Shown here in pieces: positions 804-63,385 of a stretch of 64,000 bases of DNA. Numbering within the stretch: the stretch's first letter is position 1; every line of letters begins with the position of its first letter. This stretch comes from an uncultured Pseudomonadales bacterium (lineage in GTDB: Bacteria; Patescibacteriota; Microgenomatia; UBA1400; PJMF01): assembly GCA_964625685.1 (NCBI GenBank), contig CAZVBO010000001.1, positions 153,570 to 217,569 on the forward strand, in the 5' to 3' direction. The notes under the pieces were generated by a model. It had not been told where the DNA came from and did no database searches. It saw only the letters and a list, made by a program, of their open reading frames with translations. The position numbers and the translations under genes are program-made.

Positions 804-1076
804 CTAGATCTCAAGCAGGACGGAAAGTTTCATATTTAAAACACTTGCTAGGCGTTTTAAAAACGAAAGTGAAGGAGTGGTTTTAGCATTTTCAACTCGA
901 GAAATAACTGACTGTTTAGTGTGAAGCTTTTTAGCAAGTGCTTGTTGGCTTAGACCTGATTTAAGACGTGCTTCAATAATAGTTCGAGCAATTTGATATT
1001 CAAGTTCTGTTTCTTTGAGGGATAGTTGAACCTGTTTGTTTTTGAGTAGCTGGAGTTTATGTTGTTGCCAATTCAT
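804..1076 (-). CDS. HTH XRE-family antitoxin (HigA-like)
   Basis: A 90-aa ORF with an XRE helix-turn-helix (LSQQALAKKLHTKQSVISRVEN), lying immediately downstream of a RelE/HigB-like gene in the same orientation. Confidence 0.6.
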   Translation of the reverse strand: MNWQQHKLQLLKNKQVQLSLKETELEYQIARTIIEARLKSGLSQQALAKKLHTKQSVISRVENAKTTPSLSFLKRLASVLNMKLSVLLEI

Positions 1077-1113
1077 ATTTTTATATTATCACAATTTTGC
1101 TATAAAAACAACC

Positions 1114-1440
1114 TTATAACGTTGAGTAGTACTTATACCTTCTTAAAGCAATCCTTAAATCGGCTTGACTCATTTTTTGCTGTTTTTTGATAAATCCATG
1201 GAGAAGAACAATTTGTTTCTGCGGAAGTGTCATGAATAGGATCCTGATGTTATCCTGGCCTAGGATTCTAAGTTCCCAAAGAGGAGTTTTTATAATTTTC
1301 TTGGTATGTGGTGGCCCTAAACATATTCCAAATTCTTCGAGTAATGAAAAGGTATGAATAAGCTTTGCTTGAGTTTTAACTGGAAGATTATTTATGAAGT
1401 CATATACAGGATATGACTTATTTGGTAACTGATAGTACAA
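1114..1440 (-). CDS. RelE/ParE-superfamily toxin (HigB / Gp49-like)
   Basis: A 108-aa protein of the small RelE-fold toxin type. The toxin-first then HTH antitoxin order is the HigBA arrangement. Confidence 0.55.
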   Translation of the reverse strand: MYYQLPNKSYPVYDFINNLPVKTQAKLIHTFSLLEEFGICLGPPHTKKIIKTPLWELRILGQDNIRILFMTLPQKQIVLLHGFIKKQQKMSQADLRIALRRYKYYSTL

Positions 1441-2231: not shown

Positions 2232-2780
2232 ATGGCTGACTTACAATCGTATCCAGCAAAAATCTGTTTGACTGCTTCAGGTACTTTAATTTACCATAAT
2301 AAAATTTTATTGATTAAACACAAAAAAGTTCAATTATGGATGTGTCCCGGTGGACATATGGAACCTAACGAACTGCCTCACCAAGCCGCCGAACGAGAGT
2401 TCTGGGAAGAGACCGGAATTAAAGTAAAAGCACTTCATTATGGTTTTCAACCTGACAATGCTCTTACCGAATTCTTACCCATTCCGATCTCAACTAATCT
2501 ACACTGGGTGTCTCAGGAAAACTATCAACGTCGTCTTAAAAATCCATCTCATTTTCAAGCCGAGGAAATGTGGGTAAAAGGTTGTGAGCAACATTACAAT
2601 CAAAATTACCTAGTTGAGCCGCTAGCCGGAGTAGATTTTTCGCAAAATGTAGAAGAAACCGATGGCATTGCTTGGTTCTCCCAAGATGAAATCTCTGAGC
2701 TAAAAACGGGAGCTCAAATTCAATTAGAAATTAGGAATGCTTTTGAAAAGTATCACCACTATGTCACTGACCATTCATAA
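2232..2780 (+). CDS. NUDIX hydrolase
   Basis: Nudix box GGHMEPNELPHQAAEREFWEETGI (GX5EX7REUXEEXGU). Confidence 0.8.
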   Translation: MADLQSYPAKICLTASGTLIYHNKILLIKHKKVQLWMCPGGHMEPNELPHQAAEREFWEETGIKVKALHYGFQPDNALTEFLPIPISTNLHWVSQENYQRRLKNPSHFQAEEMWVKGCEQHYNQNYLVEPLAGVDFSQNVEETDGIAWFSQDEISELKTGAQIQLEIRNAFEKYHHYVTDHS

Positions 2781-3543
2781 TCTCCAAGCCAAAATTGATG
2801 ATAAGCAGATTCTTAAAGGAGTGGATCTTGAAGTAAATAAAGGTGAAATTCACGCCATCATGGGTCCAAATGGTTCTGGTAAATCCACTTTGGCTAATGT
2901 CTTAGCAGGCAACCCTTTTTATAAAATCCAAACTTCAAATTCCCTGCCTGCGCAGGCAGGCAAAATTCAAAAAGAGGAGATGACTCTCGACGGAATAGAT
3001 TTGCTGGACTTGTCTCCTGATGAGAGAGCCCAACGAGGCTTATTTTTAGCTTTTCAATACCCAGTAGAAGTTCCTGGTGTTAGTGTCGAACGATTCCTGC
3101 GGGAAGCCTATCGAGCTCGAATAGGTGAAACAGCAAAAAAAATGTCAGCTCTCGAATTTCGCCAGTATGTTGAGGGTTTGGCAGAAGAACTGCATGTTAA
3201 ACCAGAATTGCTGAAGCGCGGCCTAAATGAGGGTTTTAGTGGAGGTGAGAAAAAGAGATTAGAAATTTTGCAAATGGCAGTCTTACAGCCTGAGTATGCC
3301 ATCTTAGATGAAACAGATTCTGGGTTAGACATTGATGCAATCAAGGCTGTTGCTGATGGTGTCAAAACCGTTATCAAAAAATACCAAACTGGAGTAATCA
3401 TTATTACTCATTATCAACGAATTCTTGATTATATTCAGCCTGATTTTGTGCATGTGATGATTGATGGGCAAATTGTAAGAAGTGGTGATTTTAGCTTGGT
3501 AGGTGAATTGGAAAGTAGTGGCTATGGGAATTTAAAGGCTTAA
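2761..3543 (+). CDS. sufC: Fe-S cluster assembly ATPase SufC
   Basis: Walker A GPNGSGKST, ABC signature FSGGEKKR and Walker B ILDETDSGLD. The gene lies directly upstream of sufB. The start was chosen at the internal ATG (MSLTIHNL) to avoid overlap with the NUDIX gene. Confidence 0.9.
   Translation: MSLTIHNLQAKIDDKQILKGVDLEVNKGEIHAIMGPNGSGKSTLANVLAGNPFYKIQTSNSLPAQAGKIQKEEMTLDGIDLLDLSPDERAQRGLFLAFQYPVEVPGVSVERFLREAYRARIGETAKKMSALEFRQYVEGLAEELHVKPELLKRGLNEGFSGGEKKRLEILQMAVLQPEYAILDETDSGLDIDAIKAVADGVKTVIKKYQTGVIIITHYQRILDYIQPDFVHVMIDGQIVRSGDFSLVGELESSGYGNLKA
2943..2960. repeat. 18-bp perfect palindrome CCTGCCTGCGCAGGCAGG inserted in-frame within sufC
   Basis: The exact palindrome recurs at 14073-14090 and 53503-53520. 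Here it encodes the extra segment SLPAQAGKI in the loop after the Walker A region. Confidence 0.8.
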
Positions 3544-4974: not shown

Positions 4975-4989
4975 GAGGTGGCGTCATTT

Positions 4990-5066
4990 TGTCATTCCGG
5001 CGGAGGCCGGAATCTATAATATTTTTGCAAAATAAGGTATGGATGCCGACTTTCGTCGGGATGACA
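4990..5066. repeat. MITE-like palindromic element, copy 1 (subfamily B)
   Basis: Sequence TGTCATTCCGGCGGAGGCCGGAATC...GATGCCGACTTTCGTCGGGATGACA. It has TGTCAT/ATGACA termini and two internal hairpins, and is intergenic between sufB and the sufD-like gene. Confidence 0.75.
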
Positions 5067-5079
5067 TTTTAAAGCAACT

Positions 5080-6885: not shown

Positions 6886-7269
6886 GTGAGTGAAAATATG
6901 AAAAAAACTCTTAATTCCTATAAAGAACTTGATGTATATAAGAAATCAATTATTTTAGTGAGTTCAATTTACCAACTAACTAGAATGTTTCCTGAAGAAG
7001 AAAAATATGGTTTGATTTCTCAAATGAGAAGAGCTGCAGTATCAATTCCACTGAATATAGCTGAAGGAGCAAAAAGACAGACAACAAAAGAATTTATCCA
7101 TTTTTTTGTATGTAGCGAGTGGCTCCTGTTCTGAGATACAAGCAATATTTGATGTTGTCTCCGCTTTAACAATGGTTGATGAAAATATTAAGAGTGAATA
7201 TGAACAAAAGCTAGAGGAAATTGCTCGAATGTTAAACGGTTTAATTCATAGTTTAAAGGCTAAACGATA
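6886..7269 (+). pseudogene. Four-helix-bundle protein (TIGR02436-like), interrupted by a +1 frameshift in a T7 run near 7100-7106
   Basis: The 82-aa ORF ends ...EFIHFFVCSEWLLF*. Shifting one base at the T7 run restores the family-typical continuation IHFLYVASGSCSEIQAIFDV...IHSLKAKR, ending at 7269. Confidence 0.5.
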
Positions 7270-7301
7270 GGGACACTAAAACACATACACTATTCACTAA
7301 G

Positions 7302-13954: not shown

Positions 13955-14063
13955 GGAGATAAAGGCTTAAAGGGTAAAGCCAGTAATCCCCTTTTCTAAA
14001 AGGGGCATCAAACGAGTGAAACGAACCTGATGGGGTATTCAATAAGTCACTTAAACACCTCTA

Positions 14064-14122
14064 TCTGGCTTTCCTGCCTGCGCAGGCAGGCGCCAGATGT
14101 CTCCTCTTTAATAAGAGGAGAT
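14064..14122. terminator. Twin palindromes between convergent genes; the first contains the CCTGCCTGCGCAGGCAGG unit
   Basis: ATCTGGCTTTCCTGCCTGCGCAGGCAGGCGCCAGAT followed by TCTCCTCTTTAATAAGAGGAGA. They lie between the 3' ends of the PfkB kinase (+) and the Lon-like ATPase (-). Confidence 0.5.
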
Positions 14123-14149
14123 TGCAAAAAATTTGAAATTTTTTGACAA

Positions 14150-21036: not shown

Positions 21037-21443
21037 GGGGATGTATTGCTTTGACGTAATACGCACTTTAACATCTGCAAACCGTCTTTGATCAAAGACG
21101 TTAAACAGGTCACTTACAATAACTGGCAATATGCTCAGTAAAGTCCGTGATATGGCTGGTAGAGCTTTAGCTGCTATCAATCCATTCATGGATCCAAATT
21201 TTGCTTCCGTAGAAGCTTAACTAGGCATTCATGCTTTTACTCTCACTGATGGTAAAGTATGGGTGAAAACTCAGTCAGTGTGACATGAGTAAATTGGTAC
21301 GATTGCTCATTAAGATATAGTACCGGGGAAGGAGACACAGTTTGTTGTTTTACTGGCTTTTTCTTTAGACTCAAAGAACAACTAAGTTTGTAGATGATGT
21401 TATTTTGACTATTGCGGACGCGGGTTCATTACTCGCCATCTCC
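21037..21443 (+). ncRNA. ssrA: tmRNA (ssrA)
   Basis: The 5' GGGGAUGUAUUGCUUUGACG and 3' GGACGCGGGUUCAUUACUCGCCAUCUCCA match the E. coli tmRNA ends (GGGGCUGAUUCUGGAUUCGACG ... GGACGCGGGUUCAACUCCCGCCAGCUCCACCA). The acceptor GGGGAUG pairs with CAUCUCC. An internal ALAA-encoding GCUUUAGCUGCU is present. A promoter-like TTGAAT/TATAAT lies just upstream. Confidence 0.8.
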
Positions 21444-21484
21444 ACACTTCGACTTAATTTTCTTTCTTTACGAAGAAACTTGCT

Positions 21485-25056: not shown

Positions 25057-25130
25057 GGTCGTATAGCTCAGTTGGTTAGAGCGCGCCGTTCACATCGGCG
25101 AGGTCTCTGGTTCGAGTCCAGATACGACCA
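25057..25130 (+). tRNA. tRNA-Val (anticodon CAC)
   Basis: A cloverleaf with GGTCGTA/TACGACC acceptor, D arm, anticodon loop TTCACAT and T arm CTGGTTCGAGTCCAG. CCA is not encoded. Confidence 0.85.
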
Positions 25131-25145
25131 CATTTCCTGATATTT

Positions 25146-25171
25146 CAGGTTCGAGTCCTGAATCGAGCACT
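25146..25171 (+). repeat. Degenerate direct duplicate of the tRNA-Val 3' end (T arm plus acceptor)
   Basis: CAGGTTCGAGTCCTGAATCGAGCAC compared with tRNA CTGGTTCGAGTCCAGATACGACCAC (about 21 of 25 identical), 15 nt downstream of the tRNA. Confidence 0.5.
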
Positions 25172-26224
25172 TTAAATCAATCCAAACTTCTCAAAAACTT
25201 GTCTCACATCTTCACTACTATTCGCTTTGACTAACTCAATTCTGATTTCTCGCGCATTTTCAATGCCTTTGATATACCAACCCAAATGTTTCCGCATGGG
25301 GAAAAAGCCATATTTTTCATCTTGGCCATAGGTTTGTTCATAAAGCTGAGCATGTTCGAGAGCAATCTGCGCCATCTGATGAGCTGGATGTTCACTTGGT
25401 TGTTGTTCAAAGACAAAGGGATTTCCAAAGCTGGCTCGGCCAATTAAGACCCCATCAGTATGGTATTGTTCTGATTTCTTGATACCATCTTGGTAGGATT
25501 GCACATCTCCATTGCCCAAGATTAGAGTATCTGTTTGGTGAATTAACTCGGCTGCTTGGGCAATATACTCCCACTGAGCTTGACCAGTATAGGCCTGGCG
25601 GAGAGTACGGCCATGAATGCCAATGATACTGGGTTCCATTTCCAGTAGTGTGGGGATCCACTCATCAATGACAGGCTGATCGTACCCAATGCGTGTTTTG
25701 ACCGAGATAGGTGGAGGAGTAAAGACAGTTGATTCTTGATGTCTTTGCTCTACGACTCGCCAAATATTTTCAGTAATATCTTTGCAGTCTCGACTTCTTT
25801 TACCATTAAGATAGTCCTGAACACCAGCTTTGGTTTGGCGAATAATTTCTTGTGCGAGCTGGGGAGTTTTAATCAATGAAGCTCCAGCACCGGAATGAGC
25901 GACACTTTTGGCAGGACAACCCATGTTAATATCAATGCCATCAAAACCTAGTTCACATAAAACTATAGCTGTTTGTCGAAAAAAATCAGGAGTCGTCCCG
26001 TAAATTTGAGCAATGATGGGATGTTGAGTTTCATCAAGTAAGAAATCTTTGAGTAACCGGTCGGCGCCATGACAAACCCCTTCGACACTGGTAAATTCAG
26101 TATAGATGACATCGGGGCAGCCGTACTTTTTAGTAATGGCCCGAAAAGGATAATCAGTCACTCCATCCATGGGAGAGAGACCGATAATCGGTAAAGATAG
26201 CTGGTGCCAAAAATCATTTTTCAC
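25172..26224 (-). CDS. dus: tRNA-dihydrouridine synthase
   Basis: MDGVTDYPFR N-terminus, catalytic NMGCP and a TIM-barrel FMN-binding layout. Confidence 0.85.
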   Translation of the reverse strand: MKNDFWHQLSLPIIGLSPMDGVTDYPFRAITKKYGCPDVIYTEFTSVEGVCHGADRLLKDFLLDETQHPIIAQIYGTTPDFFRQTAIVLCELGFDGIDINMGCPAKSVAHSGAGASLIKTPQLAQEIIRQTKAGVQDYLNGKRSRDCKDITENIWRVVEQRHQESTVFTPPPISVKTRIGYDQPVIDEWIPTLLEMEPSIIGIHGRTLRQAYTGQAQWEYIAQAAELIHQTDTLILGNGDVQSYQDGIKKSEQYHTDGVLIGRASFGNPFVFEQQPSEHPAHQMAQIALEHAQLYEQTYGQDEKYGFFPMRKHLGWYIKGIENAREIRIELVKANSSEDVRQVFEKFGLI

Positions 26225-31480: not shown

Positions 31481-31570
31481 TAGTTAATTTCCAAAATCCA
31501 AATTTCAGAATTTATTAATGAACCATCTGGATTGGAAAATTGAATTTTGGTTTTTGGATTTTGAAATGGA

Positions 31571-39008: not shown

Positions 39009-39042
39009 GTGTTCGTAGTTTCATTTTGATAACAAATTATTA

Positions 39043-39116
39043 TGTCATCCTCGCGCACGCGGGGATCTGGGATATTGGTTGTGTTTTTCCAGATTCCCGC
39101 TTTCGCGGGAATGACA
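39043..39116. repeat. MITE-like palindromic element, copy 2 (subfamily A)
   Basis: TGTCATCCTCGCGCACGCGGGGATCTGGGA...CCAGATTCCCGCTTTCGCGGGAATGACA. Confidence 0.75.
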
Positions 39117-39124
39117 AATAGAAG

Positions 39125-53489: not shown

Positions 53490-53581
53490 CGTCATCCTCG
53501 CGCCTGCCTGCGCAGGCAGGAATGCGGTGATCTGGAATGGCACAACCAATTTTCCAGATTCCCGTGTACACGGGAATGACA
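53490..53581. repeat. MITE-like palindromic element, copy 3 (subfamily A, carries the CCTGCCTGCGCAGGCAGG palindrome)
   Basis: GTCATCCTCGCGCCTGCCTGCGCAGGCAGGAATGCGGTGATCTGGAATGG...CCAGATTCCCGTGTACACGGGAATGACA. Confidence 0.75.
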
Positions 53582-53658
53582 AGCAAATGAGGTTTTACTT
53601 GTGGGTTTTATTTTCTTACTTGCATCAGTTTTGCTGTAAGTAACATAAGCGAGTAGTT

Positions 53659-59906: not shown

Positions 59907-60150
59907 GTCACAGGTACTATAGTATATTTTTGGTTGATTGCAAAGCAGAGAAGAAAGTTACTGGTGACTAGATTCATAGGTCGCAACCAACGAGGAACGC
60001 TGCGGAGTGATATCTTTTTGGTGTCGTTCGATCCCCAAAAAGATCACGTCCTTCACTTATTGCTAGGTTAACAATCTCATAACAAGAGTGTTTATCCAAG
60101 AAAATTAATTTTTTTTGAACACTTTCCATTCATTATTTGTTAGTCAGATT

Positions 60151-60230
60151 CGTCATCCTCGCGAAAGCGGGGATCTGGGAAATAAACAGTTTAGTAGTTT
60201 TTACAGATTCCTGCTTTCGCAGGAATGACA
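60151..60230. repeat. MITE-like palindromic element, copy 4 (subfamily A)
   Basis: CGTCATCCTCGCGAAAGCGGGGATCTGGGA...CAGATTCCTGCTTTCGCAGGAATGACA. Confidence 0.75.
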
Positions 60231-60261
60231 TATCAATAATCTTTGAAGTTTCTAGGCAAGA

Positions 60262-60320
60262 CACTAAACGTTAGCCATTTAGATTTTGGAATTTGGACTT
60301 TGAAATTTAGACTTTGAAAT
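60262..60320. repeat. Short AT-rich tandem repeats (GACTTTGAAATTTRG, 3-4 units) in the divergent promoter region
   Basis: GATTTTGGAATTTGGACTTTGAAATTTAGACTTTGAAATTTGGATTTTG. A related inverted arrangement occurs at 31478-31560 and a weaker one at 2186-2215. Confidence 0.5.
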
Positions 60321-60347
60321 TTGGATTTTGCCCACTATACTAGAGGA

Positions 60348-62077: not shown

Positions 62078-62152
62078 TTAAATCAAACTTTTTACTTGAA
62101 TAGGAACTTGAATCTTTATCCAGTATTTGTACAATAAGCGGCATACATACAA

Positions 62153-62303
62153 TATCCTTCAGGGTCGGGTGAAATTCCCAACCGGCGGTAATTCCACAGT
62201 TTTTGGAACAGCCCGCGAGCGCTCTGTAGTTACATACTTCGGAGGTCAAGCAGATCTGGTGAAATGCCAGAGCCGACGGTAAAGTCCGGATGAAAGAAGG
62301 TTC
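62153..62303 (+). promoter_or_regulatory. FMN riboswitch (RFN element) aptamer
   Basis: GGGUGAAAUUCCCAACCGGCGGUA, AGCCCGCGAGC and GCCGACGGUAAAGUCCGGAUGAAAGAAGG closely match the B. subtilis ribD RFN (GGGUGAAAUUCCCGACCGGCGGUAGUAAAGC...AGCCCGUGACC...GCCGACAGUGAAAGUCUGGAUGGGAGAAGG). The P1 helix is CCUUC/GAAGG. Confidence 0.85.
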
Positions 62304-62360
62304 AATAACACTTAGTTGGTAAGTGTTATTGTTGATAGTGAATTCATAATTCACTTTTCT
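62304..62360 (+). terminator. Riboswitch expression platform: a 10-bp hairpin (62304-62330), then an intrinsic terminator GTGAATTCATAATTCAC-TTTTCT (62338-62360)
   Basis: AATAACACTTagttggtAAGTGTTATT, then GTGAATTcatAATTCAC followed by a T run, then RBS GGAG and ATG at 62391. Confidence 0.6.
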
Positions 62361-63316: not shown

Positions 63317-63350
63317 AATGTTTAGTGTTTATTGGTTAATTGTGTTGCAT

Positions 63351-63385
63351 TGTCATTCCGGCGACGGCCGGAATCCATAATGTTG
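63351..63385. repeat. MITE-like element, left half only (subfamily B)
   Basis: TGTCATTCCGGCGACGGCCGGAATCCATAATG is near-identical to the left arm at 4990-5021. No matching right arm is seen. Confidence 0.55.

Follow-up and report, generated by a model that had tools for sequence, protein, structure and literature searches.

An 18-bp palindrome occurs three times in the window

The 64-kb stretch of contig CAZVBO010000001.1 analysed here (hereafter the window) contains a suf operon, and its sufC gene (2761..3543, plus strand), which encodes the 260-aa ATPase of Fe-S cluster assembly, is host to a perfect 18-bp palindrome, CCTGCCTGCGCAGGCAGG, which we refer to as PAL. Exactly three PAL sites were found in the window: copy 1 (2943-2960) lies in frame in sufC, copy 2 (14073-14090) in a hairpin loop between convergent genes, and copy 3 (53503-53520) in a hairpin loop of an element resembling miniature inverted-repeat transposable elements (MITEs). 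An earlier reading of the window (the original prediction) had claimed exactly three copies, and this number was confirmed by an exact search and by a search allowing up to two mismatches, which revealed no fourth site in the window. The chance expectation for PAL in the window was 0.00 in 100 dinucleotide-preserving shuffles, and its 8-mer core CTGCGCAG was confined to the same three sites. The GC content of the window is about 40%, whereas 14 of the 18 bases of PAL are G or C. When folded, PAL forms a hairpin with a stability of -11 kcal/mol. PAL is free of stop codons in all six frames and, being 18 nt (six codons) long, it never breaks a reading frame.

Empty counterparts were compared with all three sites, namely an orthologue of sufC, paralogues of the MITE-like element and a paralogue of the intergenic hairpin element. 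The inserted segment measured 18 bp in two of these comparisons and 19 bp in the alignment of copy 2 (A5) only, and no target-site duplication was seen. The alignments show PAL to behave as a discrete insertion without target-site duplication at each of the three sites. The original prediction had also supposed that the palindrome acts as a mobile module, and this view gained support from the comparisons with the contigs L002 and L001 and with the two paralogous empty sites.

The sufC copy and its empty alleles

The first base of PAL copy 1 is the third of codon 61, and the copy encodes residues L62-G67 (LPAQAG), so that the protein reads S61-L-P-A-Q-A-G67 and then continues with K in frame. 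SufC aligned with the solved structures 2D2E (E=2.5e-77) and 2D3W (E=4.4e-74), in comparison to which it has 13 extra residues after Y54-K-I. It had been proposed that the extra SufC segment is added by the palindrome. The insertion relative to the solved structures was indeed found, but PAL supplies only six of its residues, and the other seven come from older 7-bp tandem repeats. The latter form a degenerate heptamer-repeat tract on the plus strand (CTTCAAATTC / PAL / CAAAATTCAAAAAG, 2933..2974), which is the target that PAL entered.

A protein search with SufC returned an identical protein, followed by P0002 (249 aa, 95% identity) and P0003 (254 aa, 86% identity), and the remaining matches were below about 75%. 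These relatives belong to Patescibacteria. The contig L002, which encodes the closest distinct orthologue P0003, is collinear with the window through the loop region except for the 18 bp of PAL (alignment A2). The loop of L002 reads AAAGCCAAAAGC|CAAAAGCCAAAAG, i.e., three GCCAAAA heptamers, at the place where the window reads CTTCAAATTC|PAL|CAAAATTCAAAAAG, and the homologous tract of L002 shows no target-site duplication. The precise 18-bp difference bears out the earlier claim of a frame-preserving insertion in sufC. Alignment of SufC with its orthologues likewise confirmed the extra residues, with LPAQAG as the part contributed by PAL, and the segment was not common to SufC proteins from unrelated taxa, which argues against its being ancestral.

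The second comparison came from contig L001, which belongs to the same species and encodes P0002, a SufC with a short, canonical-like loop lacking PAL. The 83 alignment columns that differ between the window and L001 over 8.68 kb were all within 2328-3009, with a dense stretch in 2824-3009, and the sequences were otherwise 100% identical. This sole differing stretch (2328..3009; about 680 bp) corresponds to 9032-9680 of L001, covers the 3' end of a NUDIX gene and the first third of sufC, and includes the sufC loop. It looks like a short homologous-recombination import that swapped the SufC loop allele. Because the conspecific and otherwise identical L001 has the short loop, the long loop is both dispensable and polymorphic. 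The strains of the window and L001 stem from the same sample series. When metagenomes were scanned for alleles of the sufC site, filled or empty, no match was obtained.

The AlphaFold model of SufC had a mean predicted local distance difference test score (pLDDT) of 86 and a predicted template modelling score (pTM) of 0.83, and the pLDDT dropped to about 50 over residues 61-70, and below 50 at residues 63-65, in a segment between two strands. The LPAQAG segment is thus predicted to be a disordered surface turn. PAL would have landed in a pre-existing heptamer expansion within a surface beta-hairpin turn that follows the Walker A helix, and we infer that in SufC it is most likely a neutral passenger.

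Copies 2 and 3 are nested in hairpin elements

The original prediction had placed the other two copies in an intergenic site and in a MITE, and both locations were verified. Copy 2 lies in the loop of a TCTGGC/GCCAGA hairpin within a terminator-like, multi-hairpin intergenic element (13985..14125, plus strand; minimum free energy -54.7 kcal/mol, z = -5.8), the neighbours of which are a pfkB-family kinase gene and an AAA/Lon-lid gene. In the predicted fold PAL is nested within the outer stem. When an empty site for copy 2 was sought in relatives, their contigs were either identical (same strain) or ended too early, and a paralogue of the element was used instead: the L001 sequence at 3241-3420, with about 80% identity, lacks PAL and shows a 19-nt gap in alignment A5. 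The sequence of copy 2 was identical in L147 and L148, two further assemblies of the same strain.

Copy 3 occupies the left-hairpin loop of a MITE-like double-hairpin element, GTCATCCTCGCG…GGGAATGAC (53490..53582, plus strand), which was delineated by the repeat families D1/D3 and I1, by alignment A3 and by folding. Two paralogous elements of the same repeat families, at 39042..39119 and 60148..60231 (both on the plus strand), are without PAL and represent empty sites, with a gap of 18 columns in alignment A3. Copies 2 and 3 both reside between convergent genes, within terminator-like hairpin clusters. A MITE-like family with GC-rich hairpins of the form GTCATTCC-N-GGAATGAC (ATTCCC…GGGAAT) is represented in the window at 4989-5075, 39042-39119, 53490-53582, 60148-60231 and 63350-63384. 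This hairpin type is widespread in other phyla and gives rise to spurious open reading frames (ORFs) such as 'SRFRGND'. PAL was found nested in hairpin loops of the GTCATTCC…GGAATGAC type in the unrelated genomes of L066, L073, L077, L088 and L144. Rfam contained no family matching at PAL sites.

PAL is found in unrelated sequences across phyla

We scanned species-representative genomes (one genome per species) and found exact PAL in at least 119 loci with unrelated flanks; all PAL-site counts given here refer to this sample. About 70 of the loci among the matches listed were labelled Patescibacteria (WWE3, Microgenomates, Parcubacteria/Paceibacterota, Saccharibacteria and Dojkabacteria), and the others among the matches listed came from Bacteroidota, WOR-3 and further groups, including one Sphingobacteriales genome with at least eight copies. 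Nearly all matches were metagenome-assembled genomes from many projects and assemblers, and two cultured isolates, Litoribacter ruber and Rosettibacter primus, were present among the matches listed. As estimated from composition, the chance frequency of PAL is about 1e-12 per position at 40% GC, and less than one match would be expected if all 596 Gb were so composed. Among the matches listed, 87 of 127 PAL sites were in loci below 46% GC, where chance matches are negligible, and 18 sites were in loci of at least 55% GC and may be due to chance. The 25 PAL matches in viral contigs were uninformative, as they were mostly in high-GC contigs where chance matches are plausible. About 960 kb of PAL loci contained a few more exact copies and five copies with one mismatch, all of the mismatches breaking the pairing; these copies indicate that PAL may decay after insertion. 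PAL has entered a large number of unrelated sites independently.

More than half of the PAL sites (79 of the 127, or 62%, among the matches listed) were located in frames that stay open for 150 codons or more, in comparison to 83% of random positions in the same loci. The reading frame of these 79 sites was uneven, the peptide being LPAQAG in 57, PACAGR in 14 and CLRRQ in eight. Three superoxide dismutase genes from three genomes carried LPAQAG at three different positions, and the peptide is missing from homologues. These Fe/Mn superoxide dismutase sites are at L079:7653-7961, L081:4620-5279 and L118:2340-2975; NUDIX and Mur-ligase genes were also struck more than once, which may be due to targeting linked to expression, to tolerance or to chance. 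Comparison of such homologous genes from other genomes shows PAL insertions at different positions, which are independent of each other.

The base preceding PAL was a purine in 79% of the sites and the base following it a pyrimidine in 77%, and the preference was about 70% at non-coding sites too. A heptamer-repeat context was observed for 8.7% of PAL sites and for 1.3% of control positions, which is an enrichment of about 6.7-fold, and the period was seven in nearly all cases. Tandem heptamer-type repeats (AATTTGG/TTTTGGA-like) of the same kind as the PAL targets elsewhere also occur intergenically in the window, at 31532-31563 and 60271-60330. The outward extension of the palindrome beyond PAL was in only slight excess over chance and was rejected as a sign of a longer element.

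In five Parcubacteria-type genomes PAL was situated between nucleotides 10 and 11 of a 5' fragment or pseudocopy of tRNA-Gln that adjoins an intact tRNA-Gln (L029:1700-2110; L111:380-760, minus strand; L038:3520-4015; L043:350-490; L039:6720-7200, minus strand). In L029, L039 and L043 this PAL lies directly downstream of a conserved AAA-ATPase gene. In both L029 and L111, the interrupted and the intact tRNA-Gln are separated by a small free-standing GIY-YIG ORF, on both sides of which the tRNA 5' end is directly repeated over about 26 nt. PAL was also considered as an insertion in functional tRNA genes, and this was rejected: removal of PAL restored the prediction of tRNA-Gln only in L039, and the interrupted copies are fragments or pseudocopies.

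A second perfect palindrome, TCCGCCAGCTGGCGGA, of 16 nt, was observed at six loci from about five genomes, with several copies nested in other hairpins (L067:2079-2094; L083:1715-1730 and 7273-7288; L098:7450-7465; L106:4962-4977; L108:5738-5753; L113:5470-5485). The contigs L067 and L083 belong to one genome, as do L106 and L113, and the flanks differ except between L106 and L113. The centres of both palindromes are 6-mers of the blunt-cutter type, CAGCTG in TCCGCCAGCTGGCGGA and TGCGCA in PAL. TCCGCCAGCTGGCGGA might represent a second cassette family in its arms-only form, comparable to the one described below for PAL.

The halves of PAL are the termini of a GIY-YIG nuclease cassette

The two 9-bp halves of PAL, CCTGCCTGC and GCAGGCAGG, are the outermost termini of a GIY-YIG nuclease cassette of 279-318 nt. 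In the WOR-3 genome contig L071, an hsdR-like ORF contains an exact PAL, an in-frame small GIY-YIG ORF and a 39-nt arms-only version. The left border of the GIY-YIG ORF is formed by CCTGCCTGC-GCCGCG… and its right border by …GCGGCGCG-GCAGGCAGG. Relatives of the L071 GIY-YIG domain were sought in metagenome contigs, which yielded 80 loci, and the 56 closest (cassette loci L150-L205) were analysed. Both arms were present in 51 of these 56, representing 43 distinct elements in 31 host contexts with a locus GC of 0.30-0.65. The lengths of the 51 two-armed cassettes were all multiples of three, each of them started on the third base of a host codon, and in 47 the frame stayed open over 30 codons or more to either side. 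They are read through in frame as host…D/G-LPAPR…[GIY-YIG]…(A)RQAG-G…host. When the outermost 9-mers of the consensus arms (left CCTGCCTGCGCCGCG, right CGGCGCGGCAGGCAGG) are joined, the result is PAL, translated as LPA|QAG.

The similarity extends to the insertion context. The residue before the element was D or G in 48 of the 51 cassettes and in 31 of the 57 PAL sites read as LPAQAG; the two bases preceding the cassette were GA in 33 cases and GG in 15, which fits with D and G as the commonest residues before PAL. The comparison shows that PAL is identical to the cassette termini in sequence and shares their codon phase, frame and preceding-residue preference. Some cassettes are variants with the arms in the CLRRQ frame, and tandem arrangements of a cassette and an arms-only form were found in P0248 and P0253. 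Degenerate arms-only remnants exist in some cassette hosts ('LPAPRGSRQAG' in L162 and 'PPAPSGARRAG' in L177), and in some loci the PAL arms enclose other hairpins.

The cassette domain was identified as PF01541 GIY-YIG (E=3e-16). After removal of the cassette, the hosts were recognised as HsdR, HsdM/N6_Mtase, HsdS, DUF1156, SNF2 helicase, Type ISP enzyme and N6_N4 methylase; the host families identified, eight in all, consist without exception of restriction-modification or defence proteins, a bias that may be partly due to the use of an hsdR-borne query. The junctions were recurrent in homologous genes, e.g., PHVPD|AWID and FYPxDPD|. Intein N- or C-terminal motifs were absent from LPAPR…RQAG and no intron was present, so the cassette is not spliced out of the host product, and no target-site duplication was seen at cassette borders. 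A search of a plasmid collection for the cassette gave no relevant match. A GIY-YIG insertion in HsdR of Methylococcus capsulatus, absent from an 80%-identical homologue and assigned to an Slx1-like cluster, has been described previously (Dunin-Horkawicz et al. 2006, PMC1564403). Its authors called the insertion unique and described neither arms nor a small derivative (PMC1564403). A full-text search revealed no published description of the 18-mer, its peptides or the arm sequence, although a description beyond the searched literature is possible.

Possible origin and propagation of PAL

Since its halves are the termini of the cassette, PAL should be an arms-only derivative of the cassette, or its footprint or landing site. 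We consider it probable that PAL is non-autonomous, ultra-short selfish DNA that consists of two joined 9-bp termini of the GIY-YIG cassette and enters reading frames, hairpin loops and heptamer repeats. The cassette itself enters genes, mostly those of restriction-modification systems, between the second and third base of a codon and is translated straight through. PAL enters DNA without target-site duplication, preferring hairpin loops and heptamer tandem repeats, and its targets may be structured or single-stranded DNA.

The propagation of PAL presumably relies on the machinery of the cassette, for which three sub-models can be envisaged. In the first, PAL would be a minimal MITE that the Slx1-like GIY-YIG nuclease moves in trans, a view favoured by its large excess over cassettes in PAL-bearing genomes, by the uniformity of the 9+9 junction and by the tiny size of the hairpin loops in which it is found. 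PAL could also represent the remainder after precise loss of the cassette, which is favoured by the intermediate derivatives and by the tendency of homing nucleases to ignore their own ends. Finally, PAL could be the uninterrupted site that is cut by the nuclease and into which the cassette homes, this being the classical reason for an element to be flanked by the two halves of one sequence. Slx1-family nucleases are structure-specific, and by analogy the preference for hairpin loops and slipped repeats would fit enzymes of this family.

Several observations weigh against the propagation of PAL as selfish DNA. The bias towards one PAL frame could arise from selection alone, and the perfect retention of PAL at one tRNA-Gln-associated position in five diverged genomes could mean selection rather than neutrality. 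The three window copies are without the purine|pyrimidine (R|Y) flanks typical elsewhere. Neither a GIY-YIG ORF nor a transposase-like gene was found in the 64-kb window, where the genes recognised by a Pfam scan of about 40 ORFs were confined to housekeeping, glycosyltransferase and toxin-antitoxin functions. Of at least 119 PAL loci, just one (L071) contained a full cassette bearing PAL arms, and other small GIY-YIG genes near PAL copies had no arms. GIY-YIG genes were near PAL in 10 of 122 sequences (121 loci and the window) among the matches listed, which is not clearly above background, and clustering of 865 ORFs from the PAL loci (at least 119) revealed no protein family dominant near PAL. 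In a landing-pad test, no host junction was common to PAL and cassette sites in this sample. In addition, homing endonucleases classically do not recognise the ends of their own element (PMC1564403), which counts against simple mobilisation in trans.

The last point would be explained if PAL had never been mobile as an 18-mer and each copy were the footprint of a GIY-YIG cassette lost through precise internal deletion or excision, of which 9 bp per arm had been kept. This alternative, which we regard as rather unlikely though worth serious attention, agrees with the occurrence of intermediate arms-only forms beside full cassettes (the 39-nt form in L071, the tandem forms in P0248 and P0253), with the frame, phase and preceding-residue preferences that are alike for PAL and cassettes, and with the normal inactivity of homing endonucleases on their own ends. 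Moreover, our reading of the consensus is that slippage across the stem could be aided by a GC direct repeat of 2 nt at the junctions of the arms. However, PAL far outnumbers full cassettes in PAL-bearing genomes (one cassette in at least 119 loci), and in unbiased flanks the uniform 9+9 junction equals the rest of the arm derivatives combined in frequency. PAL also occupies hairpin loops of 3-4 nt and non-coding heptamer repeats of very compact genomes, each of which must then have gained and lost a cassette of 300 bp, and relatives showed no full cassette at the positions of the three window copies.

It could also be argued that PAL is kept by selection, as a terminator or RNA-stability hairpin, as a protein-binding site or as an LPAQAG linker. 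The location of copies 2 and 3 in terminator-like hairpin clusters between convergent genes, the stable hairpin (-11 kcal/mol) and the perfect conservation at the tRNA-Gln position, where PAL directly follows the stop codon of a conserved upstream gene, would be consistent with such a role. Nevertheless, the same 18 nt occur in unrelated genes, in different frames and in non-coding contexts, whereas a peptide motif would show varied codons. One-mismatch copies break the stem with no compensation, and in SufC the insert is predicted to be disordered and is missing from the conspecific strain and from orthologues. A selected function is therefore very improbable as a general explanation, and for the sufC copy it is unlikely, but it is conceivable for intergenic copies in terminator-like hairpin clusters and for the tRNA-Gln-linked position conserved in five genomes.

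Movement of PAL as single-stranded DNA by a Y1 HUH transposase (RAYT, the transposase that accompanies repetitive extragenic palindromic (REP) sequences, or TnpA), like that of REP or IS200/IS605-type hairpins, is barely credible. A GC-rich hairpin in an AT-rich genome, the lack of target-site duplication and the preference for possibly single-stranded loops and repeats would be expected of such an element, but PAL is a perfect palindrome without a loop, has no asymmetric GTAG or CGTC tag and no fixed target tetranucleotide adjoining its copies, and lies mostly within ORFs instead of being extragenic. No Y1 transposase gene was detected among the Pfam-scanned ORFs of the window, none was recurrent near the PAL loci (at least 119), and the termini match the GIY-YIG cassette instead. 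Palindromic linkers occur in some library types and nearly all matches are metagenome-assembled genomes, but a sequencing-library or assembly artefact (a linker or chimeric junction) is excluded by flanks that are contiguous across the site relative to orthologues and paralogues, by the identical copy 2 in two other Sequence Read Archive (SRA) assemblies of the same strain, by the presence of PAL in cultured L. ruber and R. primus, and by its in-frame occurrence in ORFs and by the origin of the matches from many projects and assemblers.

Returning to PAL as selfish DNA derived from the cassette, we tentatively propose, as a broader claim that is somewhat more doubtful than not, that it is the smallest bacterial mobile element recognised. 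It might be an 18-bp, stop-free, arms-only parasite of an undescribed class of translate-through Slx1-like GIY-YIG cassettes, either moved in trans to slipped repeats and hairpin loops or serving as a portable landing site, and the pair might be spreading across phyla and seeding LPAQAG in housekeeping proteins of Patescibacteria.

Implications

Organelles and one family of cyanobacteria are known to harbour ultra-short palindromic invaders, the parent and mechanism of which are almost never known. PAL is tied by its sequence to a specific nuclease cassette, which makes the mechanism directly testable. The wider point is that mobile DNA can reside inside genes without splicing, by virtue of a length that is a multiple of three, the lack of stop codons and linker-like arms. 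PAL gives rise to small indels and loop insertions in proteins of the streamlined Patescibacteria, and the concentration of cassettes in restriction-modification genes may bear on the evolution of defence systems. In practice, inserts of the LPAQAG type, and the spurious small ORFs to which repeats of this sort give rise, are a hazard for the annotation of metagenome-assembled genomes.

Other features of the window

Upstream of the suf region there is a Gp49/HigB-like toxin gene paired with a helix-turn-helix (HTH) antitoxin gene (804-1440, minus strand). A small ORF (6886-7134) is located between sufS and a NifU-like gene, and its counterpart in L001 had a Pfam match to the 23S rRNA intervening-sequence protein family. 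The window also contains a transfer-messenger RNA (tmRNA) gene (21037-21447, 95 bits) and a flavin mononucleotide (FMN) riboswitch (62151-62305, 118 bits) upstream of an EamA-family transporter gene. The 3' end of a tRNA-Val is duplicated by short direct repeats (25106-25134 and 25145-25173), and parts of a tRNA-Arg are directly repeated (31295-31330/31349-31384 and 31383-31414/31439-31470). These repeats show the pattern of tRNA-gene integration or of tRNA pseudocopies.

Comparison with known systems

The cassette resembles homing endonuclease elements in that a GIY-YIG gene resides in an otherwise intact host gene, is lacking in close homologues and is found at one and the same site in homologous genes of different organisms; the uninterrupted recognition site could then be PAL. 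It differs from them in having no intron and no intein splicing motif, in being translated through, in its inverted-repeat arms and in its at least 31 unrelated host contexts. The relationship between PAL and the cassette is reminiscent of that between MITEs and their parents, as the halves of PAL equal the outer 9 nt of the arms in 51 of the 56 enzyme-encoding cassettes and intermediate arms-only forms exist. However, PAL lacks target-site duplications, the parent encodes a GIY-YIG nuclease and not a known transposase, and 18 bp is far below the size of described MITEs.

REP sequences and their paired forms (REPINs), which are linked to the Y1 transposase RAYT, are extragenic, 20-40 nt long, imperfect, GTAG/CGTC-tagged and species-specific (PMC3116915, PMC3733652). 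PAL is likewise short, GC-rich, palindromic, dispersed and non-autonomous, but 62% of its sites (among the matches listed) are in open frames, the palindrome is perfect, and the flanks are unrelated, with a weak purine/pyrimidine preference at -1/+1.

The Rickettsia palindromic elements (RPEs; Ogata et al. 2000, as cited in PMC3184786) are palindromic in-frame repeats in protein genes, including essential ones, to which they add a peptide stretch that is tolerated. The original prediction had drawn a parallel between the sufC insertion and RPEs, and it is apt as far as the tolerance of in-frame insertion is concerned: PAL in sufC, and at 79 of 127 sites among the matches listed, leaves the ORF undisrupted. 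PAL is, however, not a member of this family, given that RPEs are about 100-150 bp (30-50 aa) long, Rickettsia-specific and without a known parent, and PAL is an 18-bp (6-aa) sequence found across phyla.

GC-rich ultra-short palindromes are also known from mitochondria, e.g., the GC clusters of yeast with putative AG target-site duplications (PMC4478555). Further mitochondrial cases named in a passage of PMC7218506 are the PstI palindromes of Neurospora, the ultra-short invasive elements of Podospora and the double-hairpin elements of Allomyces. It has been proposed that the fungal mitochondrial palindromes are moved by endonucleases whose genes lie elsewhere, in mitochondrial introns. Similarly to PAL, these are GC-rich palindromes that invade AT-rich compact genomes, are optional between relatives, occur beside tRNA genes and are sometimes found in coding regions. 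In contrast to PAL, they are organellar and 30-50 nt or more in length, and no element with termini equal to the palindrome halves has been described for them.

The closest parallel in context may be SDR1-8 of Nostoc/Anabaena, which Elhai et al. in 2008 are said to have described as hairpin-forming repeats of 21-27 nt, mobile by filled/empty comparison and confined to Nostocaceae. These small dispersed repeats (SDRs) reportedly often lie in tandem heptamer repeats or MITEs, are nested and geneless, and have been suggested to move via an RNA intermediate. To our knowledge, no parent element of SDRs is known. Like the SDRs, PAL is filled/empty polymorphic between relatives and appears in heptamer, MITE and nested contexts. 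However, PAL is 18 nt long, identical across phyla and mostly in frame in ORFs, its halves match the GIY-YIG cassette, and its hosts are mainly Patescibacteria. Thus, PAL is set apart from SDRs, mitochondrial palindromes and RPEs by its length of 18 nt, its cross-phylum identity, its mostly coding location in one preferred frame and its traceable nuclease cassette.

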